From NCBI GenBank assembly GCA_905178155.1, contig CAJINV010000006.1:276461-315296 (forward strand): DNA of 38,836 nt, given 5' to 3'. The notes below the pieces were generated by a model that was not told where the DNA came from, searched no databases, and was given only the letters and a program-made list of their open reading frames with translations. The translations under genes and the position numbers were made by a program. This document shows positions 730 through 38,836 of the stretch, piece by piece. Origin of the DNA: Amoebophrya sp. A120 (Eukaryota; Protista; Dinoflagellata). Positions within the stretch are counted from its first letter, which is position 1. Each line of letters begins with the position of its first letter.

Positions 730-3700
730 TGTTCACCACAAAGCCGAACCAGTACTCCCCTACGCTCAAATCGAAGAACCCGTTGCGACAGTGGTCCTGC
801 ACGCGCCTCCCCAGAACGTATTCCGCCCGCTCCGAAAATGCGGCAAGCAAGACGCAAGAGTCGCGGAGCTCGCCATTTCTGGTGTGTTCGAGGGAGGTAG
901 AAGATGAATCAAAGTTGAGGCTCATCTCATCTCCGGCCTATCCTGAGCAAAAGTATCTGATACTCGTGGTAATCGCAGTCATGCAACGTCTTTCCTAAAG
1001 GTAAATCCGCAACATTAGAAATTTCATTTTTTATCATGCTGAGGGATGAATTTGTCATGCGATTTCTACTAGTACGATACTGTTGCAAGACCATGCATAC
1101 GACCACCGCGTGCTGTGCCGGGTTGATGCCGTTCAAAGCGTGCGTGCAAAACGCCAGATGGTGTTTCAGTGTCACCAAAATATCGTACGAAAAAAGTGTT
1201 TCACTGTAAGGATTTTGCAATTTTTGCATCACAAGTTGGTTCTGCATGACAGAGAAAATTCGCCATGCGAGATTTCCAAGGGAAAACACCACTAAAATTC
1301 CATTGTCTTGCATGTGTAGCAAGACAAACGGTTCTGAGATAGATTTTCTGCATTACAAGTTTACAGTGAAACAGTTTTTTCTTGCGATACAAAAACCGGT
1401 GGGTGTAGTCGTGCAGGTCCCACAACAGCTGCTCCAGTTGATTCTATGCATCGCAAAATTCGTAGGTAAATTGCAATCATGCATTACAGATCTGGGTATT
1501 TATCTGATTCACCATTACAAATTCACGAAATTTGTCGTGCTGGGGATGAAATTTGTGATGCGATTTAACTACTAGTACGATTTATAAGTACTTTTGCAAT
1601 GCATAGATTCTTTGCGGCGACAAAAGTGGGTGGCAGCGACACGCCTTGACGGAAAAGGTTCCTGCGTTCATCGTCGGCAGGTAGCTCTATTATCTTCATG
1701 TCCTCACAAACTCGGTCCGGTACTTGCAATATCCTTGGTACCCGGTTGCTCTCCTTGGGTACCGAGGGAACTAGCGGGACCTGGAACAGCCCCACTTCAG
1801 ACTCCGTTTCCTCGTTCGTGCAGTTGTAGTACTGTTTTTTATGTTGATGTTCGTTGTCGTTCTTCTCCTCTGCAGAAGCAGCTCCAGTACTATGGCCTTC
1901 CTGAGAAAGATGATGATCATCATTATGATTTTTATCCCCAGCTGCAGGAGAGGTAACGTCAACGTGAGAAGTTGATGTCTCCTTATGCCGTTGCTGCGTC
2001 GCAAATTCGGTTTCAGAGGCAAGCCGCGCCTCCTGGTAGTCGGAGTCGGACACTTTTAGTTGTTGTGTACTGCCTTCAGCAGGACCTGCCGGCGTTGTAC
2101 CAGCATCTTCGATGTTGTCGCGAAAAATCGCTGCGTGAAGAACGTCGGCCGAAGAAGCAACATGCCCCCACCGCCCCTGTAGCTCTTCGATGCCAACGTT
2201 CATGGTGCCCGCTATCCTGAGTAAACACGTCCCCACACCAGAGTCAGGATGGGGATTTTGCAACACAAGCCTAGGAGTTTTGTGAGTCACGCATGACAAG
2301 TTGCACTTCGCAGCGTAGTGCAGGTTAGCGAGTGCAGCCGCGTCACAGACTTATCTGCTCATCCTGTTCACAGCATCACAAATTCCAGAACACGATTGGA
2401 AATGGCTCTCATGGGGATGCGCATTACAAGTCTTCCTGTCTTTGCAAATCTGCATTACAACTCTGGTGTGGGGACGTTTTTACTCAGGATACCCGGGCCG
2501 AAAAATTCATTAAAGTAGTAATCCAGCGGGATGTATCCTGTGCAAAAGTGTCGCGCTCGTATTAATTGCAGTCACGCATTACAAATTTTTTTTCTTAAGA
2601 TTAATCCGCATTACAATTTTTTTTTCTGCTCATGCTGAGGAAATTTGTAATGCATTAATACTGTTACACGATGAGTACGATACTTGTGCAAGTCATAGTA
2701 TGTAATCCTTCCGCACCCGTGGTTCCTCGTCTATGACGGGCGGGAAAACGCGGCAGATGGACGTTTTGCGTATTGTTTTATGCCTTGCAAAAGCATCGCA
2801 CTAGGATAAATTGCATTACAAATTAGCCCAGCGTTACAAATTAAATTTGTAATCCTGATTCACCTTGAGAAAGAGATTTGTGATGCATAAAACGCAATCT
2901 TCACTACGAGTACGATGCTTTTGCAATGCATATGTTTCCGCCTGGGACCACTGATTCTTCAACAGGGTAGTTGCCTCGTCCTCTTGCAGAAGGAAGTGGT
3001 TGTAATGCCGCTGTTGCTCCTGATAAGGTGGAGCGGGCGTCTTCGTATCTTCAGCAGTAGAACTGGAACTAGAAGCACCTCCTCCGCTAGGGGGTTCTAC
3101 TTTTGTAGTCGTTGCAGCATCTACTTTATGATCATCTTGATGTTGATGCCCTAGCGCGGCTGCAGTAGATCCGTTTATATCTTTCTCGCTGGACGTAGAC
3201 GCCCGGAGAACTTTGTCGAACAAAAACTTTTTCTTCTTCGGGAACCTGTCGGGACGAGGAGGAAGCCTGTCTTCAGCTTCGCTAATCCACTCGCCCCATG
3301 CGTGCGAATTATCTACTTGCGCTGCACTCGACAGCACACGACGAGTAGTTCTTGGTGGTCGCACATGTGCTGGAATCTTCATTGGTGTCGCTCTCGAGCG
3401 TCCGCCCGCGCTACTGTGCGGCGCTCCTCCTTCTCGGTCGTTATTCTTCGAAGACAGAAAGCTGGACACCAAAACGTTTACCTTGTGCGGAAGAACGTGC
3501 TTGTAGCGCAGATTCATGTACAGGGCGGTGGAGAAGGCAACACGGTCGGAAGAGGGCTCCTCTCGAAGATGATCCACAACAATTTCGGGGAAGGAGGAGG
3601 TAGAGGACGCCTTGGTCGTACTACTACCTGGTGCAAAATTGTCGTCCTCGTCTTCATCTGTGCCGCACACTGTAAACTTTGCGATCCTCGGCGATAGGCG

Positions 3701-6700
3701 GAGGAACCGTTTCGCGTCAAGCAGTTCTTCCGGCCTGGGAGGAACAACGCTGGTTGATGTTAGGAACTCCGCTCCGCCCTGCTTCTCCTTCCGCTTTGTT
3801 GTAGTACGTAGATCGGATAGGTGTACAGTAGGCTGGAGGTGGTCCTCTTGCGCATCTGTTACTCGTCCCACAGCAAGGTGTTCTTCTTGACCAGTAGAGT
3901 TTGTTACAGTAGAAGAAAAATGTTCAAAATACCAAACCGCATCCCAAAGCGTCGCAAAGTCTTCTGACAGGTCGAGATAGTATGAATGTGTTTGCGGGGG
4001 TGGGTGCTTGTGGTCCCGCTGCTGCCATTCGTGTCCGATCCGCTTCCGCGTGTTCCAGCCGACCGGATCTAGTACTTCCGCATGATCAAAAGTCGATCCA
4101 CTGGTTTTCTTCTTGTTCCTCGAAAGCAGCAGCTCAGCTAAGTTCCGGCTACCCCAGATGACCGGAATACAGTTGGCTTCCAGCAAACAGGAGAAAGTTT
4201 TGGGATGGATAAAATCGTATCCAGTGCAAAAGTATCGCATCCGTATTGAGAATTAATCGCAGTCACGCATTACAAATCTCACTCTCAAGGTAAATCGGCA
4301 TTACAAATTTTCTTTCTCAAGCTGAGGAGATTTGTCATGCGATTTATACCAGTACGATACTTTTGCAATGCATAAATCGCGCGTGCCAATGTGTTCATCC
4401 GTTAAAACGAAGCTGAAGCGACAAGAAGATGGCTCTTCTTGTGCAGCATCTGCATTGATGTGGTCTGCATGGCGCCCAAGACGTTGAACTACACTGGAGG
4501 AATTTTTTTCATCACTCTCTCCACCACCGTCTGCTTCTTCTACTGTTCTTGGCGGCACAACAACAGAACAGTCACTGTCTGGAGGAGCGAAGTCCTCGTC
4601 GTGGTGCGTATTTATTCCCAGCGACCGTTGGGATGCTGATACGGTGGTGTCGGTATGTTGTTCACCATCTGTAGGTCCTTCTACCAGGTTTTCCTGGAGG
4701 TAGTTTGGGTCCGGGCCACGACTCTGGCCTCTGTCTACTTGTTTCATCTGACCCGCTACAACTTGTAGGATGGCCTGCTTCATCCTCTCCGCCTGAGCCC
4801 CCTCTACCACGTCAAAATCGAGGCTGCAGTAGCGACGGGGAAGCGAAGCGGAAGTAGTTCTTGGCAGCTGCTCTACTCCTGCTTCAGTGAACGAGATAGT
4901 GGACCACGTCGACGCGTGCTGTTTGCTAGGCGTGTAGTCACCATCCTCGCCTACGAGGGTCGTCGTCGTCGTGTCCTGCTCGGAAGAATGTACTAGACCG
5001 GTCGTCGAAGTTGTACTAGAAGAAGAAGAAGAAACAGGCCCCTGGCCTTGCGGAATAGAGCCAGATCCCGACGAAATTGTTAAAACCGAAGATGAGTTGT
5101 CATTATTTCTCAATTCTTGAATCGCCTGCACAGTGTCCGCATTACACATTTTTTTCCCCGTATGAAAGTGCACAAAATAACCCTCCAGCAGCCCCTGGTG
5201 CGACCGTTGTGGTGGTCATGCGAGTTGGGTTCTTGCGCAGCTGTCGCTATTGGATCATTAATATTCTTGCCCTCTAATGCTGTCAGCAGCCCACGTGCGC
5301 TGCATCACGATCTACGTATACTGTGGCGGCCACAACGACCCTACACAGTTGTACTAAAACCAGTTTGGTCTTCCTAGACCGACGTCTAATTATATTCTTT
5401 CTGCACCACAGATGAAGCCAAATTTTTATGTTGAGATCTCCAGGGTAACAAGGCGATAGTGCGCATCATCAATCCCATAGGCAGTCTGACACAACAACCA
5501 GTGACTGTATGCCGACATTGCGTCTTCCTCAGAGGCGTTGCGCCTATGACGTTGCACAACCCGCCTCCCTCTAATATGAGTATCTCGCTAGTCAGTTTGT
5601 GATGCAATATCATAGCCGCCGCGTGCCACAGTAGTGCAGTTAAACTTTATTTCGCATGAAGATCTACTTCAGAAGTTGCAATTATGCAACTGAAAAAGAT
5701 CATGCAACAGGAGGAGTTTTTGTGCACTCTCATAGCGGCCGCGCGCCACGTCGATTATTTTCCGTTCGCGGCGGAACGGGAGCGGCGTCGGTGGCCGTGC
5801 GTACGCGGAGGCGTCACCCATGCCCGTCCCTACCGGCAAGGTGGATGTAGTTGTACTAGAGGTCGTGTTCTTCGCCTTGGTACCTCCTGTGCCTGCCGTG
5901 GTCGGGGTCGTTGTGTTCAGCACATTCGTTTCGTTGTTCGTGGTCGAGCTATGCATTGCAAAAGTAATATCGCTGTACCAGAACTAGTAGAAATCCTATT
6001 ACAAATTGACTTAGCATTACATTTACAGCCTATTATGCGGATCGATAGCAGAAGCACCAACTCTGTAATTATGCACGTACCACCAGTTGTTCCAGTGAGT
6101 TGACAATACTTTTGCACAGGATACGAGATACGAGGCCGTCCCCGAAATCCCGGAGGCTGGAGAAGAAATTTTTGTGATGTCTTTTTGTCTATACAGGGGT
6201 AGGTTTTATGCATGACAAAAGCGGTACATCATGCGGTCGCTCTATGCATCAGAAATTTGGAAAACAATACAGCACTTATCTACCTTCGGTAACGCATTCA
6301 TCCTTATCTCTCCTGCGAGGGTCGTCGTCGTCGTGTCCTGCACGGAAGAAACAATCTTTTCGTGTTCATGATGATCCGTCACGACGATTGTAGCACTCCT
6401 GTCAACTACATGGTCGACAGCAGCGGAAGGGTTCAATTCCCCATTGCTCTCCACGACCACTTCCTCCTCCTCTTCCAAGTCCTCAAACTCGCCAAGCTCC
6501 AAAATTCCCCGGGTCGTGATGGTCGTTTTCTCGGAGTGCGAGAACTCCGTTTCATGATCGTCGTCCCCGCCGCCGGCGGTGGGATCATGATGATGGTCGG
6601 TAAATGCGCCAGAATCATTTTCATCCCCCTCATTCCCAGCGTTAGCGTCCTCTGATAAAATCGCATGCTGAGAAATGTGTTCTTGCTCCAGTTCAAATGC

Positions 6701-7205
6701 TTCTTGTTCTTTCGACGTTCGCAGAAGGTTCTGCAACTCCTGCTGCTCACGGTCATTGACGGCGCAGAAGTATCAAATGTAAAAATGTCTGGGTCTGGAA
6801 ACTTGTAATGCTAAAAATGAATGATCGACGCACTGCAGTACGCAGCTATGCATGACAAATTTTTTGGCTGCCATGTCTTACGTATTCCGCATGGCAAACT
6901 GCGTTTTTGCATGACAGGTAAGAGGGCTTTTTTGTGCCTGTGCAACACAGATTCTCGAATCATGCCAGACAAGCATGACAAACTTGCATTCTTCCAGACC
7001 CAGACATTTTTACAGTTGATAAGAAGGACGGAAATGCGTCGTCGACAACCACGTGGTCACGCGGATGGGCCGATTCTCGTTGCAGCGTGCTCCTGTGATG
7101 AAAATCGCTTTTTAATACTTCCGGTTCCGCAGGGATTATGTGTGACGTGCAGCAGAAGAGGACGAGAGAGCGGAAGAAGGAGAATTTTCTTGCGAAAATG
7201 GCCAT
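730..7205 (-). CDS. Large multi-exon protein with an N-terminal hydrophobic signal/anchor and a degenerate GT10 (alpha-1,3-fucosyltransferase)-like region; interrupted by 10 TIR introns; 3' end unresolved
   Basis: ATG at 7205 (MAIFARKFSFFRSLVLFCC). Removing element plus 5 nt gives in-frame joins: FPSF/CAVND, PRIS/TTNN, GTRD/FIHPK, QAET/IRKT, KDYI/PLDYY, FGPG/TMNV, AKN/QLEQ, HRFL/VTLK, HAVV/GDEMS. The reconstructed RFSFVLTDEHIGTRDFIHPKTFSCLLEANCIPVIWGSRN...YYLDLSEDFATLWDAVWYF resembles the GT10 KFxLxFEN..DYxTEK..AL.AG.VPV.G motif. The junction near 6190-6290 is not resolved. Confidence 0.75.
939..1099. mobile_element. TIR intron element, family D (161 nt)
   Basis: TATCCTGAGCAAAAG...TGCATA; flanks CGGCC/CGACC (4/5); removal with one DR keeps the frame. 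Confidence 0.85.
1181..1389. mobile_element. TIR intron element, family B (209 nt)
   Basis: TATCGTACGAAAAAAGTGTTTCACTGTAA...TTACAGTGAAACAGTTTTTTCTTGCGATA; DR CAAAA. Confidence 0.9.
1445..1605. mobile_element. TIR intron element, family D (161 nt)
   Basis: TATGCATCGCAAAA...TTTTGCAATGCATA; DR GATTC. Confidence 0.9.
2213..2491. mobile_element. TIR intron element, family F (279 nt)
   Basis: Near-perfect 32-nt TIR TATCCTGAGTAAACACGTCCCCACACCAGAGT / ACTCTGGTGTGGGGACGTTTTTACTCAGGATA; flanks CCCGC/CCCGG. Confidence 0.92.
2534..2697. mobile_element. TIR intron element, family D (164 nt)
   Basis: TATCCTGTGCAAAAG...CTTGTGCAAGTCATA; flanks GGATG/GTATG; frame restored. Confidence 0.85.
2779..2932. mobile_element. 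TIR intron element, family D, reverse orientation (154 nt)
   Basis: TATGCCTTGCAAAAGCATCG...CGATGCTTTTGCAATGCATA; DR TGTTT. Confidence 0.9.
4218..4374. mobile_element. TIR intron element, family D (157 nt)
   Basis: TATCCAGTGCAAAAGTATCG...CGATACTTTTGCAATGCATA; DR AATCG. Confidence 0.92.
5161..5734. mobile_element. Long TIR intron element with family E ends (574 nt), DR not recognisable
   Basis: TATGAAAGTGCACAAAA...TTTTGTGCACTCTCATA. Flanks CCCCG/GCGGC are not a DR, but removing element plus 5 nt still rejoins the frame (ARGR/KKMCNAD). Confidence 0.75.
5950..6123. mobile_element. TIR intron element, family D-like, reverse orientation (174 nt)
   Basis: TATGCATTGCAAAAGTA...TACTTTTGCACAGGATA; flanks CGAGC/CGAGA. 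Confidence 0.85.
6771..7021. mobile_element. TIR intron element, family A (251 nt)
   Basis: 30-nt TIR TATCAAATGTAAAAATGTCTGGGTCTGGAA / TTCCAGACCCAGACATTTTTACAGTTGATA; DR AGAAG. Confidence 0.95.
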
Positions 7206-7527
7206 GAGGTCTTGGGGTTGACGCCCTCGAGCTGGGCGACGTAATATACGTGCTGGTGGTCCGCGCTTGTTTATATGTAATGTGGAGGCTGCAGCTCTCA
7301 CTCTCTGTTCTTTGTGATAGCAACGCTGGCGCTGACGTCTGTGCGTGGCACTGTAAGCAGGTAGTTCCAGCGAGATGCAGTCCTACTGAGAAGTGGCGGT
7401 GCTTCCGAAATGATGGCGCTCATACACGAAGAGCAAGTGGAGAGCGAAGCAGGGGCTAAACAATATCAGATGCTTCGTCTCGCAGCCTAGGACCGACCCC
7501 GAGAACACGAAGGCACACGGCGTCAGA

Positions 7528-13954: not shown

Positions 13955-14205
13955 ACAGCTCTTTGCAAGGCCTGACTGGTTTCAAACTCAGGCATATGTA
14001 GGACTACAAGAAACAAGATCAACGGCACAAAAACGCGACTGCTCGTGCACCAGCTTCAAAGATAAGAAGTGTTTTTAGTCCTCCAAGTGCAAATGATCCC
14101 GAAAAGTCGCACGACGCGAGATCTATGTGCGAAAAATACTTGCATTCCGACTTCGATGGGCACTCATACTTACTGAGTGTGAGTACATCTACATAGTAGC
14201 CATAG

Positions 14206-21562: not shown

Positions 21563-24500
21563 TCAAGACGGACCAGCTGGGAGTTCAATGTCTTGCAGTA
21601 GAGTAGCGAACTTGTCTTTGACGGCCTGGCTCCTGGGATGGAAATTTTCGTACATGTGCTTCGTAGTTCTGTTCCAACGAAACGGGTTTTCATTCTTGCA
21701 CGGAACGGAGCTCGACCGCGCCCTGGTCCAAGTCCAGCGAAAATGGCGATACGACCACTCGGCTCCTCTCGTGTCCGAACTCTGCCGCCAAAAAGACGCT
21801 CTGTTCTTGAAGTCCAGCTGGAAAAGCTCGTGCCATCTGGGATGCACAGCCGACGTTTCGGCAATTTCACCCTCGTTTTGGAGTTGTGAGAGCATGACTT
21901 CGGGCCATTGACGTGATTTCTTGGCCAGCGCCAGCGGCGAGTCGGTATTGAGGCAGTAACCTGTGAGCATTGCAAAAAGAAATTATTTGAAAAAACGTTC
22001 TGACGTACGAAGCTTCTGACGTACGAAGCGATCCATTGCTTCAGCTCCTGAGCTTTTACGCAACTCATTTGAAGCTAGCCAAACGCGAAATACAAAAATT
22101 GCAAAAAAAAAAAACAGCTCTGGACATGAGTGGTCCGCACATAGAGCAGCCATGGAAAAGATTTGAACTCGCGGAGCTTTCATTGGTGTAGCCAATAGTA
22201 ATATTAGAGATTTACTAAGTACCATATGGAACGCTGAAGCGGCGGACGACGAACTCCTCTATCCTGGTGTCCGCTTGAAACAGGTGCTCAGTCACCATAC
22301 CAATACGGCAGCGCCGCTCTCTAGCAGTCCGCTTTTCCTCATCGTCAACATGGACTCCGGCGTTCGACGTGCTACTACCCTGTATGCTGGGGTTGCTGTT
22401 CCTGTAAATCAGAGGATCGTCCCACACCACTACCGAGGATTCGGTCCCATTTTCCCTCCGTTTCTCGTGGAAAAAGTTCCATACCTCTCCGAAAAATTTC
22501 TTGTCTTCGCGAACGCATCCCGAACGCAAGCGTTCCGGATCGTAGACAATGTCTTCATACATGGGCCAATTGAAGTACTCCTTGTTCAGATCCCCTTGCG
22601 GCAGATCAACGTGACAGAAGGGCATCAACGCTAGAATCGTCGCAACCTGGATGAATATAACATCGACGAATGCAGCAGGTGATAGAAGATTGAGATTTAC
22701 TTACTACGGGATTCACTATAAAATATTCTTAGAGGAAACGAGTACCAGAAGAAGAAGAAGATGCTCGTCTCAAATCTCATTACATTTACAATATAGAGTA
22801 AATAATCATATCTATCAAATTTTCTTATACCGCCCAGCGGTCAGCAGGGAAAGCGAGGTCCTCGTCTGCGGCTGTGGCAGGTATCCCTAGTGCCGCGTTC
22901 GCCTCCAGCAGCCTGTCTTGACCGAGGTCCACTTCCTGATCGCAAAAATCACCAGGCTTCGAGTCTCGTCCTATACGTTCGTGAAGAACCTCGAGAAAGA
23001 GATCTTCACAACTTTCTCCGTGCTGCTGCCGTCTCATCAGCGACTTGACGCCTGATTCGTCCGCTTCTGTTTCTTCGTGTTGCTGCCACGCGATTTGGGT
23101 CCCGCTTTCGCCCAGGTGTCTATTGCTCTTTTGCATTTCTGTGCCCCCACCAGTCGTAGTCGTGCTACCGGATAGCCCTGCCGTTCTTGTTGATTCCTGC
23201 ACCGGCGCGACGTACGCCGCGGAACTAGACGAGCTAGTACCGCCTGACATCGGGCGGTTGCCACGATCTTGCCCTGACTCTGTGGCAACTGCGCCGCCAC
23301 CAGCTGGGCGCCAGGGTGCTGAGGAGCTCGAGGAGCCGCCTTCTACGACACGAGACGCAGAATCAGCACCACCACCATCACGACCTGCAGGTGAGCTTTC
23401 ATCGGGGAACTGCGCCTGCTCTGCAGTTTCCGGTCTGTCGTCATCTTCGTCGGAAATCGCTTCCAGCTGTTCGTCGAAGTAGTCATAGCCGTTTGCCACA
23501 GAGCCCGCTTCCAGGCTTGATGATAGTACAGATATTTGTCCGTCGTCTGATGCGTTTTCACCTTCATCGAAACTATCATCTGGGTTTTCACCCTCCCGTG
23601 GAGGCTGTTGGTCTTCGTCTTCTTGTGCGCCGGTTCCGACCACTTCCGATCCTTGTGTGCTCGATGATACATGCCCGCTGTGCTCATTAGCGCGGGCGCC
23701 TTCAGTGTGGCTACCAGTTGCCGTGTGAGGAGTCCCAGGGGGACTCGAGGCATCAGGGAGTGAGGAACCAGGAGCACCTTCCCCTGTCGGATGATTGGCG
23801 ATTCCCGTACGGGCTGAAGCTCCTTGCGCAGAGCCGCTCTGGTTGTCCAGAATCGGATTTGAGGTGGCTGTGCTTGAGCTACTTGAACGTTGGCCCAAAA
23901 GATCGATCCTGCCACTACCCTCAGCTGACGACTGGTCAGTTCCAACAGCAACGCCACAACCCGAATCACTACTCGCAGCCGTCGTGGACTGTAGTTCTGC
24001 ACTGTCGGACGTGCCTGTGCGCGGTCGCATTTGCGCCGTGTCTGTTCCGTCTTGCTGCGGCAACACCTCCTGCTGTGCAACACTTGATGTGGCAGCAGAG
24101 TGGAGAAGTTCTTGGTCTTGCTGCAGTTCGAGATCCTGATCATGAAGGCTGGTAGTTCCCGGCGACTGGTTGCCTTCCTCGCCTTCTCTTGTCCTTTGCT
24201 GTGCCCCCGCTGCGGGGTTTTGTTCAGCACTGCTCATCGTTTGCTCGGTGCTGGGACTACAACCACTCGTACTATCCGTCTGATCAGCACTTTCCGGAGG
24301 ATCAGGCGGTGACGCGGACGGAGCAGATGATGGTGGCTCACGGCTACCCGCTGCTGGTACTTCACCTGCTTGAGCTTCTACAGCATCCGGGTCAGCTGCA
24401 GGACTAGTTGCAGTTGCCGGACTTGCAGTCGAAGCCGCGGTGGTCGGTTCAGCAGGTACTGCCGGCTGAGCCGGCACCGCAGCAGCAGGAACCACTACTG

Positions 24501-27500
24501 GCGCAGTGGCGGAAACGGGGCCTGCAACGTGCGCAGCAGGCCCGGGTGGACCGGCCGGTGCTGGTGCCGGTACTGCTGCAACACCAGGGGTCGGACCTGC
24601 AGGTTTTGGCTTTGGTTTCGCCGGCGCTAGAAACTCCGCTCCATAAACAGGTCCCGGGGGGAACAAGGTCGACAACACTGACGACGGTGAGCTCTGAGAA
24701 GGAGGAGAAAGCGGTTGGACGTGCTGCGGAGGTGGAGCTGTTGTGTCGGCGTGCCCACCTCCCTCAGGACCATCGTTGCCGGGGGCTGTTGGTGGACCGC
24801 TAGGGTTTCCTCCACGTGGATCACCATTGCCACCACCACCACTGCCTGGATCACCATCCCCGTTGAAAATTCTTGTCGGGACCAAAATATTCGGCTTATA
24901 CCCGCCGCCGAAGCCGCCAAACGGATTATACGCATCACCGTCCCCAGACCCCAGCTCTGCTTTTTGTTTGTTCGCCTCGCTAACGTTGCCCATATGCACT
25001 GCTAAGCCGGTAGCAACAGCGAGAAGACAAACGGCGATGATGGTGATAATGATGGTTGAGAGCGAAGAGGCCAAAAAAGCGGCGCAGGGGCCCGCGGAGG
25101 ATGTTGAGGATGAGGAGGGGTCCTCTGTCAGGGGGTGAAATTTGTCTTGTGAAAGGTCGTCGTGGTCATCAACATCTTCACGTGCACAAAAACTTGGTGT
25201 CCTCATCGTGTCGCGCTGCTCTTCATCGTCGAAAGTCCGTGTCGCAGATACCGAGCATGCGGCTTTGTTCCTGGAAGCAGGAGCAAAGTCTCTTCCTGTT
25301 ACATCTTCCGCCTTCTGAGGCTGCTGATGTGACAGAGAGGAATTATCGGCTCCTTCCCTTTCAGGAGGGAGTTCCTGAGCATTTATCTTATCCACCTCTT
25401 CCTCAGAGGATGACACCAGCTCTGGCTCGTGTTCTTCTGGCGGTTCGTTACCACAATCTCGCTTTATGCCGTGTTTCAACATTTTCTCCCCTTCGCAAGC
25501 CGACTTCCCGTCGGCTTTCTGCATTTGATTCGCATCGCCGCCGTGATGTTCATCCTGCGCAACGCCGTCGTCCTGTCGTCGTTTCAATAGCTCCACTTGT
25601 AGTTCCGCACCACCGGTTGTAGTGCCCTCGAGAGCAGTGGTCGAGTTGTAGGAGTAGCTCTCTTGTTTCGCCAAAAGCGGTAGAAACGCCGTTTGATCGA
25701 TGTACTCCTCTTCGTAAATGTCCGATAGCCGGCGGCCCTTCCATTTTATTGTGAGGAAAAATCCCCCCTCCCCATATCGAAAGCGGAGTTTGTGTTGCTG
25801 TATTTGAGTACACAAATCACATCTGTCTTGCTAGAGAGGACTGCAGACCCATATCAAGCCTGAGCAGAGATGCTTTGACTTAGGCGCTTAGCATGAGAAG
25901 CGTCCGTGATGTTGGCTCAACAGCATGACAAACCGCCTCCATAATGGGACGGAAGCTGCTGCCCTTGTCTTCTTGCAACACAAACGTGATTTGTGACCTC
26001 AAATCAGCAACACAAATTTGCGAAAGCCTACCTCTTCAATATGGGGAGGGGGGATTTTTCCTTGCGATACATTTCGTCGTCTTTCCTTTCATGTCTTGTT
26101 CGTTGACTAGATTTTTCGGCGTTTTCAGTAGCAGCTTTTGCTGTCTTTTCTTGGTCGTGGTTCCTCCACGACCTACTTCGCCTGGCTGCAAACTCGCATC
26201 ATACCCAAGATCATCTCCTGGTTATGCAAGAAAAAAACTGTGTAAGTGTAACTTTGTATTGCAGACGTTACAATACAGTTACACTTGTCATGTTGGATGT
26301 GCGTCAGAGGCTATTTTCATACGTGTTTTCGCGTACTAGCTACGCATGACAGGTTTTCTCTGTCATGCAGAGCAAATTTGTGATGCTGTTCCTGCAAAAA
26401 AGTTACACTTACACATTTTTTTCCTTGGATACTGGTGCTGGCGCCTCCAAATACTTCAGCACCGTCTGCGCGTCCCACCGCCTTTCCCACCGCCACCGCA
26501 GCGTGACTTGCAGTAATGATACCAGATGGCCGAAGAGCGCGGCGTCCTGCTCTTCCCACCTGCGGGACCTCGAATACAGAATCCGGACCCGGGAATCCGC
26601 CACGGCGAACTGCGCCCGCATCCCGCAGCCCTCTAAATGCTCGTACGGCGCACGCCCGTACAGCAATTGGTAGAGGATGATCCCCAGGGCCCAAACATCA
26701 GCCGCCGGGCGCATCTTCAAACTCGCCGACCCCTCGTCCGGCTGGTAGAACGCCTCCGGCGGCATGTAGCGCGGCGTGCCGCACTGGCGGTCGCGGGAAA
26801 CGTGGGTTATACCCTCTTCCTTGTTGATCCCCCGCGCGAGGCCGAAGTCATATCAAATGTAAAAATGTCTGGGCCTGGAAGATTGCAAGATGTGTCATGC
26901 TAGTCTGGCATGACTCTGCACTCTGTATTGCGTGGCCACAAACAGCCTCTCTCGCCTGTCATGCAAAAACGCACTTTCTTATGCGGAATGCGCAGCACAG
27001 AGGCACGAAAAAACTTGTCATGCTCGGCGGTGCGTTGCAGTTCACTTATTGTTCACTGATTTGCATCACAAGTTTCCCGACCCAGACATTTTTGCATTTG
27101 ATAAGTCAGAGACCTTCACGATGTTGTCCACGATGAGGAAATTCGCGGGCTTCAGGTCAAAGTGGATCAGCCCGAGACTGTATCAAATGTAAAAATGTCT
27201 CGGTCTGGAAGGTTGCCAGGTTTGTCATGCATATTTTACATGACTCAGGATGTCTGTAATGCATGCTCTAGCATCACATATCTCTAGAGGCCTTCCTGAT
27301 GCCTATCCCGCACGACAAATGCCCTCCCCGCGTAGCACAAACTGGGCGCCTCTTGCTGGTCATGCAATAGAGATTTTTTTAGAGTCCAAAGTTAGCATCA
27401 CAAGTTGCATTCTTCCAGACCCAGACATTTTTACATTTGATAGACTGTGGATGGCCGCGACGCCCGCGACCATGTCGCGCCAGAGATTGCGGATGTCGTA

Positions 27501-30008
27501 GATAGAAAAGATTTCGTAGTTCTTCCGAAGAAAGGAGTGCAGATTGGGTATCGGAGGGGAAAGGAGGTTCTTTGGTTGTTGAGCCAGTTCTTGTTCCAAT
27601 TGAGACAACATTTTCTCATGCTCATCATGTGGTTGTACATGCAAAAATTATGGCAATCGCGATGACAAATTACATGCGCTTGCGGCTGGTCCTGCACGAC
27701 TCCTCCGAGTCAATAAATATGCACAAGGTGCTTCTTGCCGCGCGCATCTTCATGCGTGCCATCTTCTTAATCGCGGTTTAGAATCAGAGAAACCATCTCT
27801 TTCAAACAAACCAACACAATCATTATTCCACCCCATACCACAGTCCGCGAATTCCAGCAAAATGTGGATCACCAAGTCTTTTGGAAAAAATTTCGCTTCG
27901 CCGATCATCTTCACTACCCGCAGCTCGTCCACCGCGTTGTGTCTACCATTCTGGGTACTAGTTCCGGCCTTCGCTGCCCGATTTTTGTCCCGCAAAGCCC
28001 GCAGCCAGTTTACCTCCATGGCGAACGAGCGCATTTGCCTCGCGTCCCGAGCGTAGACGACTTTGAGTGCGTAGCGGCTAACGGATAACGGAGAACCTTG
28101 CTCCTTGTTTCGACTTGCACTGCTGCTTGTTCCATTGGGCTGACCACTTCGCGACGCGCCGTCATGGTTGGAGCTATAGTTGCCCCCACGACTGCCCGAT
28201 CCCGAGGTCGTAGTAGTCGATCCTTCATCTCCCACACAAGTTCGCAGGTCAACGCACTCGAACACCTCCGCCGACCCGCCCTTCCCGATCCGCTTCACAA
28301 CTTCGAGCAATAAAGTCGGTTTGTTGAAGTCCACGTGATGGCTGTCAACCACCTGTTCGCCCATGCAGATGACCATGCCGGGGCCAACGCGGGCAGTGGC
28401 GGTCACAGCGATGTTTTTCCGCTGGATAAACGCAGCCGGGGAGAGTAACGAATCATTTTCCTGGTACGAAGTCCGGCAGTCCTCGTCGTTGAAATACTCT
28501 GGTAGGTCGCTCGGGGAATTGAGAAAAGGGGCGTTGTGGCGCCCGTAGACGGGGATGCTGCAGCCCGCGGAGGGGGGATGTAGATGGTCTTTTTGAGGGG
28601 AAAAACCATTCGCCACTTCTGCGTTCGCAGGACACATCCCTTCCACATCGGGGAGACCACTAGCATGATCCCGGGGAACAAGATCGGTGTCCTTCTGGAC
28701 GTCTTTGCCATCAGGCACAGGAGAAGGATCGACCTTTTCCGCGCAGCGTGGTAATATTATCGGCGTAGAATCCTCCGGGACGACTGGCGCGTTGTTGCGG
28801 CTGTCGGCCTTGATGTCGTGGCTGCACCCTCCAGAGCTGGTAGTGTCACGAGGATTTCTGATATGAAAGCCGCGACGTCCATTTCCATATTTCGCCGCTT
28901 CAGCTACAGGCTGAGCCTCCTCTTGATTCTGGTGAAGACGCGCTGACTCGTCCACATTTCGTTGTAGCTCGGTCCTCTTACCGTTGGATGTACCAACCAC
29001 AGGAGCCACCTTTGGCAAATCCGCCTGGTAGACGAAGTCTTGCAGTCCTTGAGGCTGCTGGTCGTTCTGGCCAGCATTTTGGTGTCGCTCCTGCGGTGCG
29101 GCGAGCTGTGTGTCACCGTTTTCGCAGTCGGCATTGCTTTCGAAACTGGTTTCTCTGTTTTCCAGCCGCCCTGTGTCTGTGCGGGAGTTCTTGTGCTTGT
29201 TGTCGCGATAGGCATCAGTGAGGCCCGCATGGTCCTCAACATCATGTCTGACCCTGGGAGCAGCCACGGAATAAGAGCTCTCGGAGGTGGGCTCTCTGTT
29301 CGGATTGTAGGACGAATATTGGTCAAGGTCATCTCGTGTCGCCGCAGGCCGGACTTCCACTTGGCCGCGGCCAGGGCGCCACGCAGGAGGAGTTCCACCA
29401 CCTACATCGCTTCTTAATATCACATCATCCTCAATCGTACTCGTCGCTGCCGGTCTCCTGGCGTCGTTTTGGTCTTGGTAATACGAGCTTCCATAATTAC
29501 CGGTGGGCAAAGTGGTGTTCACTATGCCGTCGTACGACGTCGCGTTATTTCGTTCATGGGCGCGAGGGTCACGTGGGCCGCCAACCACATCCCGTGCAGC
29601 TTGTTGCCACTCATACGCTGCCTCTTCTCGAACACCTTCTCCCGGTGCATGTTGTCCCACGTCGGCTCCAGCATTTGCGGCCTGTGCATGACAAACTTTC
29701 GGCTCGAAATCGAGTGTGGTCGCAGTATGCAACGCCGACGTTGCTTGCGTGGGAACTGGGGCGACGGGTAAAGGGTAGCTGGGTACGTCATGCTCTTCTT
29801 GGACAAAGCGCGCACGGTTATTTTCGAAGCGTCTATTCGTGTTACCCGGCACTGCTAAGTCGCGGCCGGCGTTAGAAGTAGCTCCACATGGAGGCTGTAT
29901 GCAACCGTGCGGATCTGGATGGTGAGGGTTCAAATTTTTACATTGGTCAGACGGAATCGCGGGTCGTGCGGGATTGTCGTTGAAATGGTGGCTGCGCCGG
30001 TCGCTCAT
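21563..30008 (-). CDS. Mps1/TTK-like protein kinase, continuous in frame with a transmembrane helix, a Pro/Ala/Ser-rich stalk and a Cys/Trp-rich C-terminal domain (about 2200 aa if a single gene)
   Basis: Kinase motifs after removing the elements: IGKGGSAEV, YALK, LEFADC/NLHSFLRK, IHFDLKPANFL, VKVSDFGLA, QCGTPRYMPPEA, DVWALGIILYQLLYGRAPY. Approximate exons: 30008-27840, 27545-27443, 27175-27104, 26845-26432, 26217-26070, 25741-22831, 22646-22223, 21960-21563. The kinase call is strong; the fusion is less certain. Confidence 0.8.
25747..26069. mobile_element. TIR intron element, family C (323 nt)
   Basis: TATTGTGAGGAAAAATCCCCCCTCCCCATAT...ATATGGGGAGGGGGGATTTTTCCTTGCGATA; DR CATTT; join TTK/WKGRR. 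Confidence 0.93.
26223..26431. mobile_element. TIR intron element, family B, reverse orientation (209 nt)
   Basis: TATGCAAGAAAAAAACTGTGTAAGTGTAACTT...AAGTTACACTTACACATTTTTTTCCTTGGATA; DR CTGGT. Confidence 0.93.
26851..27103. mobile_element. TIR intron element, family A (253 nt), inserted in the kinase DFG motif
   Basis: Family A TIRs; DR AGTCA; join TCT GAC T/TC GGC = SDFG. Confidence 0.95.
27181..27442. mobile_element. TIR intron element, family A (262 nt)
   Basis: Family A TIRs; DR GACTG; join AIHS/LGLIHFDLKPAN. Confidence 0.95.
27549..27837. mobile_element. Decayed TIR-type intron in the kinase hinge region
   Basis: Imperfect inverted ends TATCGGAGGGGAA / TTCCACCCCATA and no DR. Removing the core plus 5 nt (294 nt) gives EFADC/NLHSFLRK. 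Confidence 0.55.
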
Positions 30009-31185
30009 AGGGTACAGGTCCAGGTTGCGCCACAGTCTGAGGGAACGCCAGTCACTGGCTTTTAGGCAAAAATAAAGGGGTGTTGCTCCGTTTGTCGATG
30101 TCGATATCCTTGGGCGGGTGTTGCTCCATAACTTATTGTACAACTTTTACTCGAATAAACAAATAGTCACGATCAACCCTTTTCGGCGGATGAGGTACTA
30201 CAACTGCTGCATGCGCAAAAATCCGATCCTCGTGAAGAGGACTGCTCGTCCCGAATGCGTCTTTCAGCCTGTTCTTGCGCCCTTCGGATCTTCTCCACCC
30301 GCGACTACGAGATTGTAAAAACGCCTTCAGACGAGCAACAAGCTTGTGCTTCGTGCGGGTTTGGCGTTGGCGTCTCCTCGAATTGAAGGTAGATACAACT
30401 GCTCCATGCGACGTGTCCATGGGTTCACTTGTACAAATAAACTCCTTTCTAAAGATGAAAAGTCGCAGAGTTTTTATCTATGAATTTGCGTGCTGCTGAA
30501 ACTGAAACCGGTGGGGTGAATGCTGAGTGTCTTACAAAATTTTTTGTGCTCCGGCATCTACTTATCATACGTGGAAAAATGAAACAGTTGAAAGTGAAAG
30601 CGGTTCCTTTTCTATACATTCTCGTCCCGTATATCGATAAAACAATGCTGAGTGACTACAAAAGGGCTTCCAAGTTGTGCTAGTCATCATACACTAAACT
30701 CCAGAAACGTTGCCGGCTGTCAAAGGCAGTCTCATGGAGAAATTATCTAGGGCTATGTCTACGTACTGAAACACTGGTCGCCACTATACCGCAAGCACAA
30801 CTGCCCGTGCCTGAAGCGATGTTGAAAAATGATTTTTTTATCAAAACGCAGAGAGTGCTGAGACGATGCCACGACGACGAGAGGCGATCCGACAAGACGA
30901 CTACATACGATTAGATTTTTGGTACGGAGCGGTTTTAATGTCAGGTTGCGAGAAGAAGCACATGATTTTCACAAGCAAGATCAGTTCTGGCGATGAGAAG
31001 TAAAAAAGGGGTTTTCGATTTTGACTTTTGCGAATTAGTGTTCATCTTGAGAGCCTCGCACTACTAGTGCCATTTCTGCATGCACTATGTTGGAAATGGA
31101 TCACGGTGATGAACTATGTTGGAAATGGATTGTATATGCGTATTGTATTTTTATTTTTTCAGTTGTTTTTTGCAAATTAGTCGTG

Positions 31186-32732: not shown

Positions 32733-32788
32733 TACGTATCCTATACGGATTCAAAATCATATACAATCCATTTCCGACACGCATATAC

Positions 32789-34936: not shown

Positions 34937-37748
34937 TTACTTCACCTCCTTCAAAAAGCGGAAGTAGAGTTTCTTAGCCAGCAGCCGGTGCTTCTTTGAC
35001 TTCGCGTACCAGGCTATCCAAGAAAAAAACTGTGTAAGTGTAACTTTCTTTGGCAGACAGCATCACAAATTTGCTCTACATGACAGAGAAAACCTCTCAT
35101 GCGCGGCTTGTACGGGAAAACACACATGAAAAAAGAAGTTCGTGGCTGTGTGGCATGACAGGCGTAACTCTGTTGCATATTCTGCATTACAGAGTTACAC
35201 TTACACAGTAGTTTTTTTCTTGCATACAGGCGGCGTCGTGTCCGTGGTGGCACTTCTGCTCCGGGTCCGCTCCGTAGTGCAGGATTAAGAAGTATCAAGT
35301 GCAAAAATGTCTCGGTCTGGAAGAGTGTAGACTTGTCATGCAGATTTTCCATGACCCATGAGTTCAGGAATGCGGGACTTAGCATGACAGACTCTGCGAG
35401 GTCTCTGCCATGCCTATTCTGCATGAGAAAGTCCGTTCCAACTTGGTCAAAAGTGGACAGCTTTTGGCATTCATGCAACACAGATTTTTGCATGCTTCAG
35501 ATTTGTCATGACAAGTTACAATCTTCCAGACCCAGATATTTTTGCAATTCATAAGAAATGGCACAGGTCTTCCTTCCCCGTTTTCGCAGCGTAGTGCAAA
35601 ACGGTCTGTCCGTTGTTGGGCCACTTGTTGTCCAGTGCTTTCCAGCCCTGGTTGTTGAGCATCTTGAAGCACTTCTTGTACTCCGCCGGCACCAATTCCT
35701 CGGCTTATCCTGTGCAAAAGTCTATCGCATTCGGAGTAATTGCATTTATGCATTACAAATCTCTTTCTCAAGGTAAATCCGCATTACAAATTGAATTTCT
35801 AATGCTGGGCTAATTTGTGATGCAATCGATACTAGTACGATGCTTTTGCATTACATATGGCTTCGTACGGAGACATGATGTCACTCGCCTTGATCACTTT
35901 CTCCTGTATGAGAGTGCACGATTCCCCCCTCATCTTTCGTATTTTTGCATGAACAGCAATACAAACACGACCACAGACACACGTGGAGCTCCCTGTGCAT
36001 GACAAATTCATGCGCCTAGTGTAGATAGTACTGCTTGGGCAGCTTCCGGAATCTGTGATGCATAAACAGTGCCACAGGGAAGCACTTGGATTTGGGATTT
36101 TGCATGAGAAATGAGAACGAGGGGGAGTTGTGCAGTTTCATATCCTGGCCGGCCACGTTGGAAGGCATACCGGATTTCTCGTCCAGCAGGTCATTGCTGT
36201 TCGCGCCGTCATCCAGCTTGCTCTGGGCCTGCGCCTTCTTAGCCGCTTCCAGTTTCTTGCGCAACTATTGTGAGGAAAATTCCCCCCTCCCCATATTGGA
36301 AAGGACATTTGTGATGTCGGATTTGCGTACACAAATCGACTTGTTATGCTAGAAGGCCAAGCGACGCAATTGTGGCCGGAATTGCAAGCAGTTTGTCATG
36401 CTGTTTGCCACTTCCAGTTGCCTCCTGTCACGCTGAAGATGCAAGGCCTTCCCACGCCGGCCAGCACTACAGTCCGCATCTTTTGCCCTCTAGCGTGACA
36501 ACGTAAATTGTGGTAGCAAATCATGCTACACAAATCTCCGTTTTAGTATGGGGAGGAGGGATTTTTCCTTTTGATAGCAACTCCGGATTCTTCTGCAGCT
36601 GGTACTTCCACTCCTTCTATGAGAGTGCACAACTCCCCCTCCCCCTCATTTGTCATGGAAAATACCAACTCCAAGCGCTGCTGCGTGGTACTGTTTGCAT
36701 GACAGATTCCGGAAGCCCAAACAGTACTGCACTGAGCGCATGAACTTGTCATGAACAGGCTCCACAGGTGGGGGTGTCTGTATTGCTGTTCATGCGATAC
36801 AAATGAGGGGGAGGGGGGGGTTGTGCACTGTCATACCTTCGCGAAAACCTGTTCGTTCGCCGGATTCGAAAAATCGATGTCCTCCGCCGGAAAACTGACC
36901 ATCAGGGCCGAGAACTCTTCGAAGAGCGAGTTTTTCTTCTTCGGGTTCGCCAAATCAATGGCCTTCTTGCCGAAATCGTCGATCACGTGCACCTGCTGCT
37001 TGATAATCGTTTCGTCCAGGTTGAGCACTAGGTAGTCGAAGAGAGGCTTGTTATTCTTTTTCGCCGCGTAGTGGAAGAAGGTGCCATATGGATTGCAAAT
37101 ATGTCTGGGTCTGGAAGAGTGGAACTCGTAATGCTGCCTGCGGATTCTAAAAATGTCTGTGTTGCATGAGCAGCCAGAGGAGTCAGCTCTTGGCACGCAG
37201 AGAGGGCATTTCTCATGCGTAATTAGCATCAAGAAGCTCTCAAAAAATCTGTGATGCTAGCATCAGCATCACAGACCTCATGGGTCATGCAAAATGTGCA
37301 TGACAAGCCCCAACTCTTGCAGACCCAGACGTTTTTGCAGTTGATATGCCACCGCCAGTCTTGTGGGCCAACTGCTGCTGGCAATTTTCGTTGTCGAACC
37401 CGAGCTCTTTGCACATCCGGAACATCTTCCCGTAAAAGTCGCACAGACCAAAGTCGTGTTCCTCGTCGTAGATCTTCGTGCCGTCCGATCGGCCCGATTT
37501 GTTGGACGCCATGGACTATGCAATGCAAAAGCATCGTACTCGTCATATAAATGCATTTAGAAATTAGCCCAGTACTACAAATTGAATTTGTAATGCTGAT
37601 TGACCTTGAGAAAGAGATTTGTAATGCCTAAATGCAAGTACTACGAGTACGATACTTTTGCACAGGATATGGACTCCTTGCTCATCATAGACTGCCGCAG
37701 CTGGTCCTTGTTCGGCACCAATTGGATCATGATCTGCCCGTTGCTGAA
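34937..37748 (-). CDS. Ankyrin-repeat protein, 9 exons split by 8 TIR introns; 5' end uncertain
   Basis: Removing each element plus one DR gives 969 nt of continuous frame ending at TAA 34937. It contains GGTFFHYAAKKNNKPLFDYLV...DDFGKKAIDLA and GQTVLHYAAKTGKEDLCHFLILHYGADPEQKCHHGHDAAWYA. Confidence 0.88.
35015..35226. mobile_element. TIR intron element, family B (212 nt)
   Basis: TATCCAAGAAAAAAACTGTGTAAGTGTAACT...AGTTACACTTACACAGTAGTTTTTTTCTTGCATA; DR CAGGC. Confidence 0.93.
35293..35553. mobile_element. TIR intron element, family A (261 nt)
   Basis: Family A TIRs; flanks AGAAG/AGAAA; join LCHF/LILHYGAD. Confidence 0.92.
35706..35857. mobile_element. TIR intron element, family D (152 nt)
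   Basis: TATCCTGTGCAAAAG...CTTTTGCATTACATA; flanks CGGCT/TGGCT. Confidence 0.9.
35907..36142. mobile_element. TIR intron element, family E (236 nt)
   Basis: TATGAGAGTGCACGATTCCCCCTC...GAGGGGGAGTTGTGCAGTTTCATA; DR TCCTG. Confidence 0.92.
36266..36576. mobile_element. TIR intron element, family C (311 nt)
   Basis: TATTGTGAGGAAAATTCCCCCCTCCCCATA...TATGGGGAGGAGGGATTTTTCCTTTTGATA; DR GCAAC. Confidence 0.92.
36618..36835. mobile_element. TIR intron element, family E (218 nt)
   Basis: TATGAGAGTGCACAACTCCCCCTCCCCCTCATTTGT...ACAAATGAGGGGGAGGGGGGGGTTGTGCACTGTCATA; DR CCTTC. Confidence 0.93.
37087..37346. mobile_element. TIR intron element, family A (260 nt)
   Basis: Family A TIR variants; DR TGCCA; join TGGG/TFFHYAAK. 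Confidence 0.92.
37517..37669. mobile_element. TIR intron element, family D, reverse orientation (153 nt)
   Basis: TATGCAATGCAAAAGCATCGTACTCGT...ACGAGTACGATACTTTTGCACAGGATA; DR TGGAC. Confidence 0.93.
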
Positions 37749-38012
37749 TATGCATTGCAAACATGTCTGGGTCCTCTGGAAGGATGCAACTTGTCATGCT
37801 AAATCCGAATCGTGCAAGAATCTGTGTTGCATGAGTGCCAAAAGCTGCGCACTTTTGACCAAAGTGAGAGGGAGTTTATCATGCAGGACAGACATGATAG
37901 AGATCTCACAAGATCTGTCATGCTAGGTCCTGCATTCCAACCCTCGTGCGTCATGGAAAACCTGCATGACAAACTTGCACGCTTCCAGACCCAGACATTT
38001 TTGCATTTGATA
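37749..38012. mobile_element. Family A element with unrelated flanks, possibly a hybrid (264 nt)
   Basis: Both TIRs are present, but the flanks CTGAA/TTCTT are not a DR. Confidence 0.85.
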
Positions 38013-38836
38013 TTCTTCCGGCCTGGGAGGAACGAGGCTGGTTATTTTGTAGGGAGGTTCTTGGTATCAAATGTAAAAATGTCTGGGTCTGGAAGATTGC
38101 AACTTGTCATGCTGAATCTGCAGCATGGAACAATCTGCGTTGCATGATTGCCAAAAGTCGTCCAGTTTTGACCAAGTCGGGAGAGAGTTTCTCATGCAGG
38201 ATAGGCATTAGAAAGGTCTCGCAGAATCTGTCATGCTAGCTCCGGCATTCCAGACCTCATGGGTCATGGAAAAGCAGCATGACAAATCGCGCAACATTCT
38301 TCCAGACCCAGACATTTTTACACTTGATACTTGGACGAGAAACTCCGTTCCGCCCTGCTTCTCCGTCCGCTTTGTTGTAGTACGTAGATCGGATAGTTGT
38401 ACACTAGGCTGGAGGTGGTCCTCTTGCGCATCTTTTACTTCTCCCAGAGCACGATGTTCTTCGTGCATGAGCAGCAAAGAGAGTCCAAGTTTTGCTACAC
38501 GGAAAGAGCATTTGTCATGCGGTATAGGCATCAGGAAGCCCTCGCAAAATCTGTGATGCTAGGGCATGCATCACAGACATCAGGAGTCATGCAAAATGTG
38601 CATGACAAACGTGGCAATCTTCCAGACCCAGACATTTTTACATTTGATATTCCATTTCGTGACCGTCGAACCAACGTAGGGACGGAGAAAGAAGTAGTGC
38701 GAAACGTCGGTGGTTGAGGCCGCGGCGGGAGGAATTTCTGTTGCTGAACTCTTATCAGCGGGAGTAGCGACGTCTGCATCGCTGTCGTGCCGCCGGGAAG
38801 TAGTAGGAGATTCATCTGCAACAGATGCAGAAGCCC
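38013..38836 (-). CDS. Exon fragments paralogous to part of the 7205-730 gene; possibly rearranged or a pseudogene; runs off the right edge
   Basis: EEHRALGEVKDAQEDHLQPSVQLSDLRTTTKRTEKQGGTEFLVQ/EPPYKITSLVPPRPEE matches EEHLAVGRVTDAQEDHLQPTVHLSDLRTTTKRKEKQGGAEFLTSTSVVPPRPEE at about 3725-3890, and the match is visible at DNA level. Confidence 0.65.
38065..38329. mobile_element. TIR intron element, family A (265 nt)
   Basis: Family A TIRs; DR CTTGG. Confidence 0.95.
38464..38649. mobile_element. Family A element missing its left TIR
   Basis: The right TIR TTCCAGACCCAGACATTTTTACATTTGATA and the family A body are present. The left ~80 nt are absent and exon sequence abuts the body directly. Confidence 0.8.

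Follow-up and report, generated by a model that had tools for sequence, protein, structure and literature searches.

By what route does a genome remove transposon-shaped sequences from its genes when these mostly lack GT-AG borders? The question is raised by a stretch of 38,836 nucleotides (nt) of Amoebophrya sp. A120 (assembly GCA_905178155.1, contig CAJINV010000006.1, forward-strand positions 276,461 to 315,296; hereafter the window), in which elements running from TAT to ATA split three genes. An original prediction, made from the letters of the window, had read them as mobile elements that are precisely removed by a non-standard route, and this reading is supported by a constant 5-nt duplication, by copies whose flanks break at the element ends, by deposited proteins, and by contigs that are probably RNA. 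We explain the elements as non-autonomous DNA transposons that are removed from pre-mRNA at a likely fixed distance from a predicted terminal hairpin; taken whole, this account is probable but far from assured, while for removal at the level of RNA our confidence is high. The window elements are the introners that Farhat et al. 2021 (PMC7789003) described in A120, and since the window belongs to the A120 genome (two deposited proteins, P0001 and P0003, both from A120 by their sources, match it at 100%) the phenomenon is already known for this genome; the link to Amoebophrya introners drawn in the prediction was right.

Mobile elements with a constant 5-nt duplication

The window was scanned for TAT–ATA pairs with inverted ends, all host frames being on the minus strand. 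The scan recovers 24 elements with terminal inverted repeats (TIRs) between positions 939 and 38329, of 152-574 nt and in the same number as predicted (Table 1). Their direct repeats match at 5/5 positions in 16, at 4/5 in six, and at 1/5 in two, 5161-5734 and 37749-38012, a tally that agrees with the earlier one when these two are taken as repeat-less and when 5161-5734, not 5545-5734, is taken as the element. The shorter candidate 5545-5734 was rejected because it fails to join the gene 1 frame, which 5161-5734 does; the latter has an extra inner TIR at 5545 and coding-looking filler, and may have a nested or recombined history. Another candidate, 6207-6269, was rejected for its 48 stops. 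Beyond the 24 there are an older element (27549-27837), missed in the prediction, and a truncated one (38464-38649). A loose search for older elements across the central part of the window returned too many chance pairs to be usable, and Rfam gave no match within the window.

These pairs are well above the chance level. Among 2084 TAT–ATA pairs, 38 have TIRs matching at 13/20 or more positions and 16 of the 38 carry a perfect 5-nt repeat, whereas 100 dinucleotide shuffles yield on average 6.6 TIR pairs (maximum 17) and 0.01 perfect-repeat pairs (maximum 1); dinucleotide shuffles served as the control, mononucleotide shuffling inflating TAT–ATA pairs about threefold. All 48 element ends start with TAT, by selection, and in 40 of them the motif TAT + 7 nt + AAA is complete. 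At 60% identity the elements fall into five multi-copy groups (of 8, 7, 3, 2, and 2) plus the singletons 2213, 5161, and 27549, of which the six families first proposed are a fair description. They have the traits of miniature inverted-repeat transposable elements (MITEs), being short, non-coding, bounded by TIRs, and present in many copies with different flanks; the flanks of other copies break off at element ends 2213, 2491, 7021, 25747, 26069, and 27442. Characteristic termini are CAC in Transib and TGT in Ginger; the ends here are TAT…ATA, and the likeness to those groups is the 5-nt duplication alone.

A second assembly, sampled by the exact end of family C and thus enriched in that family by design, provided at least 133 loci (L001-L133; 546 kb), to which all second-assembly counts refer. 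None overlaps the window exons, and near-full-length matches are present for 22 of the 24 window element queries. When 368 distinct elements were called without using the repeats, 274 proved to have a perfect 5-mer and 59 a 4/5 match, with at most six perfect repeats each of 3, 4, 6, 7, 8, or 9 nt; the target duplication is constant in length and unbiased in composition. Some of these elements lie within genes for SNF2, enoyl-CoA hydratase, and PF02719 proteins.

All families share an internal 8-mer, TGT(A/C/G)ATGC, with 61 window copies inside elements and 13 outside, and with densities in the second assembly of 12.1/kb inside and 1.2/kb outside. Its other strand reads GCATBACA, with room for a UNAC core, and a role as branch site was considered; it is unsupported, the 8-mer showing no sense bias (189 sense, 234 antisense), and for that reason a DNA-binding site would fit better.

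Six long candidate elements with perfect repeats occur in the 546 kb. One of family C, at L058:476-2934, has a perfect 5-nt repeat and a 2.2-kb insert with a 415-amino-acid (aa) frame that may resemble ORF1 of long interspersed nuclear elements; two open reading frames (ORFs) of the insert were tested and gave no Pfam match, and a status as autonomous element is unsupported.

Loss of element plus five restores the host frames

Removal of each element together with 5 nt leaves stop-free minus-strand frames of 1420, 1986, and 322 aa. Retention, or removal with +0, +4, or +6 nt, adds stops at all 23 in-frame elements; +2 and +8 also leave the frame open in 22 of the 23, as the frame alone sets the length modulo 3. 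The deposited proteins go further, since at all 11 junctions that P0001 and P0003 span only +5 fits. P0001 is identical to the gene 3 model over 316 aa across eight elements, and P0003 to gene 1 over 141 aa across three. The P0003 model starts at 1699, departs from the gene 1 frame near 731, and runs on to the left of the window; at the place of departure, 660-729, lies a decayed family A remnant whose minus-strand start is TAG and not TAT. In the second assembly, frames of at least 100 aa are open on both sides at 77 of 361 testable elements with +5, as against 16 with +4 and 24 with +6.

The frame is also restored by +5 at the elements with 0/5 (27549) and 1/5 (5161) repeats. The prediction that taking out element and one repeat restores the frame in all 22 repeat-bearing cases stands for 21 of them, in the three frames; the twenty-second, 38065-38329, lies in a gene fragment that stays open and for which there is no protein for comparison. 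The prediction was also correct that three genes are split, kinase and ankyrin motifs included: gene 2 has the protein kinase domain PF00069 and the ankyrin gene 3 corresponds to P0001, while five exons of gene 1 were scanned with no Pfam match. In one exon gene 2 is 56% identical to P0002, a relative from strain A25, and the alignment of the two continues across the kinase junctions. On another A120 scaffold there is a partial paralog of the kinase N-lobe region (P0007, 78% identical over 27840-28400). The kinase intron at 27549-27837 is easy to miss, and a fixed rule of removal would help to correct gene models.

Contigs that skip elements

Contigs, and contigs only, were available from sequencing runs, of which X3, X4, X6, and X8 are guessed to be RNA, X3 and X4 being two runs of one sample; X5 is DNA-like, with huge element depth and contigs that pass through element borders. 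The X3/X4 contigs cover the exons of gene 1 and next to no exons in 21300-30400, which is unlike DNA, and the two runs are probably RNA. Gene 2 has no exon cover in the runs, which are thus uninformative on its expression.

An X3/X4 contig from a paralog (~96% identical) skips 2774-2932, exactly one element plus 5 nt. The same contig joins 2699 to 934 with an ambiguity of 0, pairing two family A elements: the joint 934|2699 has its start 1 nt ahead of the TAT in 2534-2697 and its end 4 nt past the ATA in 939-1099, is in frame, and lies between two different 5-mers, keeping 4 nt from one repeat and 1 nt from the other. The X3 record lengths at this joint are 47+75 = 122, with no letters between. 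Locus-exact X3/X4 contigs end matching at 1606, an element edge, which agrees with splicing and stops short of the junction itself. An exact loss of element plus 5 nt, the RNA check proposed with the prediction, is seen at 2774-2932 in the paralog contigs, which are probably RNA; among the contigs of the runs no locus-exact bridged junction was clearly seen, nor was there evidence of lariats or circles. Matches in X9 are confined to TIR pieces. X3, X4, X6, and X8 also hold many element pieces with foreign flanks, at a summed depth of up to ~1000, which may be unspliced, untranslated-region, or excised copies, and a further skip in the paralog, over 3016-3206, may be a deletion there or an intron of a different type.

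The position of the cut

We define the register, k, by how many letters of the upstream repeat are removed together with the intron. Four cases in the window constrain it: the joint 934|2699 gives k=1, P0003 at 939 allows 0-2, P0001 at 35706 allows 1-5, and an aspartate of the kinase at 27549 weakly indicates 1; k=1 is allowed by all four. In the second assembly, a junction at L033 fits k=1-4 by consensus, and at L017 the match in the PDB ends before the junction.

Canonical U2 borders are not what a cut at k=1 produces. GT-AG can be reached in two of 25 window elements (939 and 36618), in line with the predicted absence of GT-AG at any register from most of them, and at register 1 ten of 25 start with GT and one ends with AG. 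Of the 361 second-assembly elements 147 can be oriented, and in these the counts of 49 for G at intron +1, 46 for A at -2, and 14 for an AG end are near background, GT-AG is present in three, and GT or AG is not enriched within the duplications. The k=1 donor always reads N-U-A-U. Canonical donors have U at +2 and A at +3, and these are positions contacted by the spliceosome core.

Published borders agree with this pattern in part. In the leading border types given by Farhat et al. (PMC7789003), nine of nine in A120 start N-T and nine of nine in A25 start TT, with T at position 2 in 18/18; eight of the nine A120 types also end A-N, and A25 direct repeats start TTA. With TT borders and TTA repeats, A25 would keep the same +2/+3 letters as A120. 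The A120 family counts listed by Gozashti et al. 2025 (PMC12130899) include both GT and AT starts and both AG and AC ends. Such tables are equally fitted by a mix of registers 1 and 4, arising from aligner choice or strand, and the perfect repeats at 274 of 368 second-assembly elements make the placement by an aligner arbitrary, so that borders will appear variable. On balance we think it probable that the intron takes in 1 nt ahead of TAT and 4 nt beyond ATA, those letters being free and the direct repeat unneeded. In a search of mainly open-access literature we found no published statement of a fixed register, a shared 8-mer, or a transposase for A120, although figures 3 and S19-S25 of Farhat et al. 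may show part of this.

A model for insertion and removal

In the mechanism that we propose, a transposase making a 5-nt staggered cut would insert the elements with no target preference, and one enzyme, binding the internal 8-mer, would probably serve all families. The net loss of element plus five, as seen at 11 junctions in deposited proteins and at one in the paralog contigs, would come from a cut N|TAT…ATA|NNNN on the transcribed strand, whatever the letters; since 1 + 4 equals the duplication length, the original target would be restored and both orientations would work. A U2/U5/U6 spliceosome might then read no letters other than the U at +2 and the A at +3, the terminal stem taking the place of both U1 and AG recognition. 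One family C copy has a predicted fold with z -6.4 relative to shuffles. We give spliceosomal catalysis an even chance. It could go either way, too, that a single splicing code covers the tens of thousands of transposon introns in A120, the stem being the ruler for both cuts, any insertion, whatever its family or orientation, an instant and precise intron, recombinant elements spliced as well, and one transposase binding the 8-mer.

Several observations weigh against this model. The sole unambiguous RNA junction, 934|2699, belongs to a paralog that shows 8 differences over 205 nt and of which the DNA is unseen, it stems from two runs guessed to be RNA, and it is flagged as not known for what lies between its halves; the X4 paralog contig also skips 191 nt (3015|3207) where the window has no element, and the joint 4212|4379 skips 166 nt, not 162, which fits only with four letters between, probably four unaligned ones. 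The deposited gene models may share their RNA basis with the runs compared here. As to the register, the kinase aspartate at 27549 wins by only 1-2 score points; codon likelihoods at 37 mismatched repeats favor no register (27.8, 25.2, 25.3, 24.1, 18.9, and 25.4 for k of 0 to 5); at L077:7352-7560 an EF-hand consensus prefers the leucine of k=2-5 to the valine of k=1; and, given the A-N ends and the mixed family counts, k=1 and k=4 cannot be told apart by the published tables. The element at 939, of family A, has a predicted fold no more stable than those of its shuffles (z -0.95), a branch-site bias on the sense strand was sought and none was seen, and no transposase was found in the window or in the 546-kb sample.

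Some of these points are what one would expect if element plus five leaves the RNA with no single register, the cut drifting within the direct repeat or varying by family, an alternative that we consider possible but unlikely. It would accommodate the flat codon likelihoods, the EF-hand-like case with its register of 2 or more, and the mixed GT/AT starts and AG/AC ends of the annotation, and Farhat et al. (PMC7789003) describe splice sites whose position with respect to the hairpin varies; yet all four constraining cases in the window are compatible with k=1, and the perfect repeats alone suffice to yield apparent variability.

A second alternative, to which we likewise give limited credence, keeps the elements and the hairpin ruler but assigns removal to an endonuclease and a ligase outside the spliceosome, with circles or linear hairpins as the released products. 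The lack of G at +1, of AG, and of an oriented branch motif would suit such a route, as would the 3' tail being 3 nt longer than the 5' tail (2-3 nt longer in the N3 / N5-6 code of Euglena) and the report that U1 was not found in A120 (PMC7789003). Set against it are the recurrence of the N-U-A donor in two unrelated element sets, those of A120 and A25, an A120 spliceosome described as near complete (PMC7789003), and the use of a modified spliceosome by non-canonical introns of tunicates (PMC13326754).

It is very improbable that the genes are pseudogenes full of MITEs whose 'introns' arose when reverse transcriptase switched template from one direct repeat to the other at the hairpin. Artefacts of this kind are known to arise where a hairpin is combined with a direct repeat, gene 3 is a duplicate that lacks its 5' part, the right end of the window is a scrambled fragment, and a locus-exact bridged junction is wanting; but the three long frames are open and broken by retention in 23 of 23 cases, the alignment of the kinase motifs to the A25 relative continues through the junctions, the joint 934|2699 has no shared repeat for switching, and second-assembly elements sit in SNF2, enoyl-CoA hydratase, and PF02719 genes. 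Excision from DNA in the expressing stage, as with the internal eliminated sequences of ciliates, would also leave a precise loss of element and one duplication, but is scarcely credible and RNA removal is favoured, as DNA-like X5 contigs cross element borders and show none of the three joints (at thin cover), 83-84% of the words of 660-7500 are present in the best-matching runs, an asymmetric register fixed to the transcribed strand agrees with removal from RNA, and we know of no soma/germline split in Amoebophrya.

Relation to known introns of transposon origin

Farhat et al. (PMC7789003) describe A120 introners as starting with TAT + 7 nt + AAA and having repeats of 3-5 nt, with RNA-supported non-canonical introns, and they report no transposase in A120. 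The window elements share the organism, the end motif (40/48), the TAT-start inverted repeats, the direct repeats (within the published range in 22/24), the families, and the non-canonical borders, and 11 of their junctions are in deposited models. They differ in that the repeats are a constant 5 nt and the border seemingly lies at -1/+4, where the published borders are variable or unknown; the shared 8-mer and the breakpoints within elements (see below) are not in the text and supplement passages of that paper. Of the 58 A120 family rows of Gozashti et al. (PMC12130899), 21 were compared; most of these are likewise TIR DNA elements of ~100-1200 nt and unknown superfamily, but with automatically assigned duplication lengths of 2-5; one TIR family has Copia/Gypsy-like ORFs, for which no link to the window families is made, and a 19-nt TIR string of the window is absent from the supplements of that paper. 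Other Amoebophrya strains have canonical introns (PMC12005148).

There is a functional parallel with the nonconventional introns of Euglena (Nomura et al. 2025, PMC12501133), which also lack GT-AG, have paired terminal triplets at a set distance with a longer 3' tail, and are suspected to originate from MITEs; a nuclease-ligase route was proposed for them. The lineage is unrelated, the spacing there was proved by knock-ins, and the code differs: CDG…CHG, spaced by N3 and N5-6, with the next exon starting in a purine, as opposed to TAT…ATA with N1 and N4. The window elements do not carry the Euglena code, and work alike without being members. The introns of Fritillaria borealis (PMC11282704; Soo et al. 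2026, PMC13326754) are also derived from MITEs with TIRs and target duplications, genome-wide and non-GT-AG, but have AG-AC/AG-AT as preferred borders, a retained U1, and a duplicated U2AF, whereas in A120 no U1 was found and border letters other than those at +2 to +4 look unconstrained; AG-AC/AG-AT borders do not characterize the window elements. Introners of Micromonas and Aureococcus (PMC7789003, PMC11282704) are non-autonomous TIR elements that give back one copy of the target duplication, but their splice sites are canonical, brought along by the element or recruited from the duplication; the A120 elements do not use such sites.

A fixed -1/+4 register would replace the absence of a clear splicing signature by a testable rule. 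If true, a spliceosome or a new enzyme would locate both intron ends by RNA shape, as a second case of a hairpin ruler beside Euglena, which would explain how thousands of insertions in coding exons are tolerated. By the same rule, recombinant elements with unmatched flanks would be spliced too, making the elements ready-made joints for exon shuffling.

Elements at likely duplication breakpoints

Gene 3 has a near-identical parent, the gene for the 506-aa protein P0004, which differs from P0001 by one change in 316 aa; support for the introns of gene 3 may come from transcripts of the parent. Gene 3 is a 5'-truncated copy in which the agreement reaches element 37749-38012; beyond it there is a gene-1-like fragment and none of the first 190 aa of P0004. 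A second switch occurs at the truncated element 38464-38649. The element at 37749-38012 is likely a recombinant at the duplication breakpoint, and these switches, together with the pairing of two family A elements at contig joint 934|2699, suggest recombination inside elements, though the parent loci are unseen, elements are dense here, and misassembly is possible. In the search for an empty site, a single copy of the 5-mer next to 38012 was seen in gene 1, but this paralog is rearranged and has an 18-nt indel at the 38065 site. Over 37749-38836 as a whole, gene-1-like fragments stand in swapped order, joined to the 5'-truncated ankyrin copy.

Coordinates and other features of the window

Table 1. 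Genes, elements, and one predicted ordinary intron in the window, with direct-repeat matches and the evidence at each junction
Feature	Positions	Strand	Observations
Gene 1 model	662..7382	-	1420-aa stop-free frame, low complexity; 10 elements and one GT-AG intron
Element, family A	939..1099	-	Repeat 4/5; P0003 allows registers 0-2 only, ruling out the sole GT-AG register (4)
Element, family B	1181..1389	-	Repeat 5/5; +5 agrees with P0003
Element, family A	1445..1605	-	Repeat 5/5; +5 agrees with P0003
Element, family D, single window copy	2213..2491	-	Repeat 4/5; at least 41 matches in the second assembly
Element, family A	2534..2697	-	Repeat 4/5; upstream border is donor side of contig joint 934|2699
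Element, family A	2779..2932	-	Repeat 5/5; X3/X4 paralog contigs skip 159 nt = 154+5
Element, family A	4218..4374	-	Repeat 5/5; near contig joint 4212|4379
Element, family-E-like ends	5161..5734	-	TIR 13/14, repeat 1/5, inner TIR at 5545; +5 joins gene 1 frame
Element, family A-like (60% identity)	5950..6123	-	Repeat 4/5
Predicted ordinary GT-AG intron, 127 nt	6157..6283	-	Required by gene 1 frame; no RNA seen
Element, family C	6771..7021	-	Repeat 5/5
Gene 2 model	22828..30146	-	1986-aa stop-free frame, protein kinase domain PF00069; five elements, one new
Element, family F	25747..26069	-	Repeat 5/5
Element, family B	26223..26431	-	Repeat 5/5
Element, family C	26851..27103	-	Repeat 5/5; directly ahead of kinase DFG motif; predicted RNA hairpin, z = -6.4
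Element, family C	27181..27442	-	Repeat 5/5; directly ahead of kinase catalytic loop
Older element	27549..27837	-	TIR 9/14, repeat 0/5; +5 restores kinase frame; register 1 gives the Asp of the A25 relative
Gene 3, ankyrin-repeat protein	34937..37748	-	322-aa frame, eight elements; identical to deposited P0001 (316 aa)
Element, family B	35015..35226	-	Repeat 5/5; +5 agrees with P0001
Element, family C	35293..35553	-	Repeat 4/5; +5 agrees with P0001
Element, family A	35706..35857	-	Repeat 4/5; register 0 ruled out by P0001
Element, family E	35907..36142	-	Repeat 5/5; +5 agrees with P0001
Element, family F	36266..36576	-	Repeat 5/5; +5 agrees with P0001
Element, family E	36618..36835	-	Repeat 5/5; GT-AG at register 1; +5 agrees with P0001
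Element, family C	37087..37346	-	Repeat 5/5; +5 agrees with P0001
Element, family A	37517..37669	-	Repeat 5/5; +5 agrees with P0001
Element, family C	37749..38012	-	Repeat 1/5; flanks are an ankyrin-gene exon and a gene-1-like fragment
Element, family C	38065..38329	-	Repeat 5/5; within gene-1-like fragment
Truncated family C element, one TIR	38464..38649	-	Between two gene-1-like pieces in swapped order

Among the other features of the window, the minus strand of 11315-13981 holds an uninterrupted frame of 889 aa, with no Pfam match and no element, and 8001-9300 is GC-rich (69% at 8001-9000) with long frames on both strands, one of which was tested and gave no Pfam match. Four copies of the 8-mer at 34022-34226 have no clear TAT ends and likely mark a decayed element. 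A tandem array of a 308-nt unit occupies 31189-32733 (five copies, 90% alike, no Rfam match), and another, of 5.4 copies of a 97-nt unit, lies at 3-534, probably within an intron of gene 1. On the minus strand, 18685-20350 and 22218-23050 encode peptide blocks that look similar by eye, perhaps as a duplicated C-terminal module.

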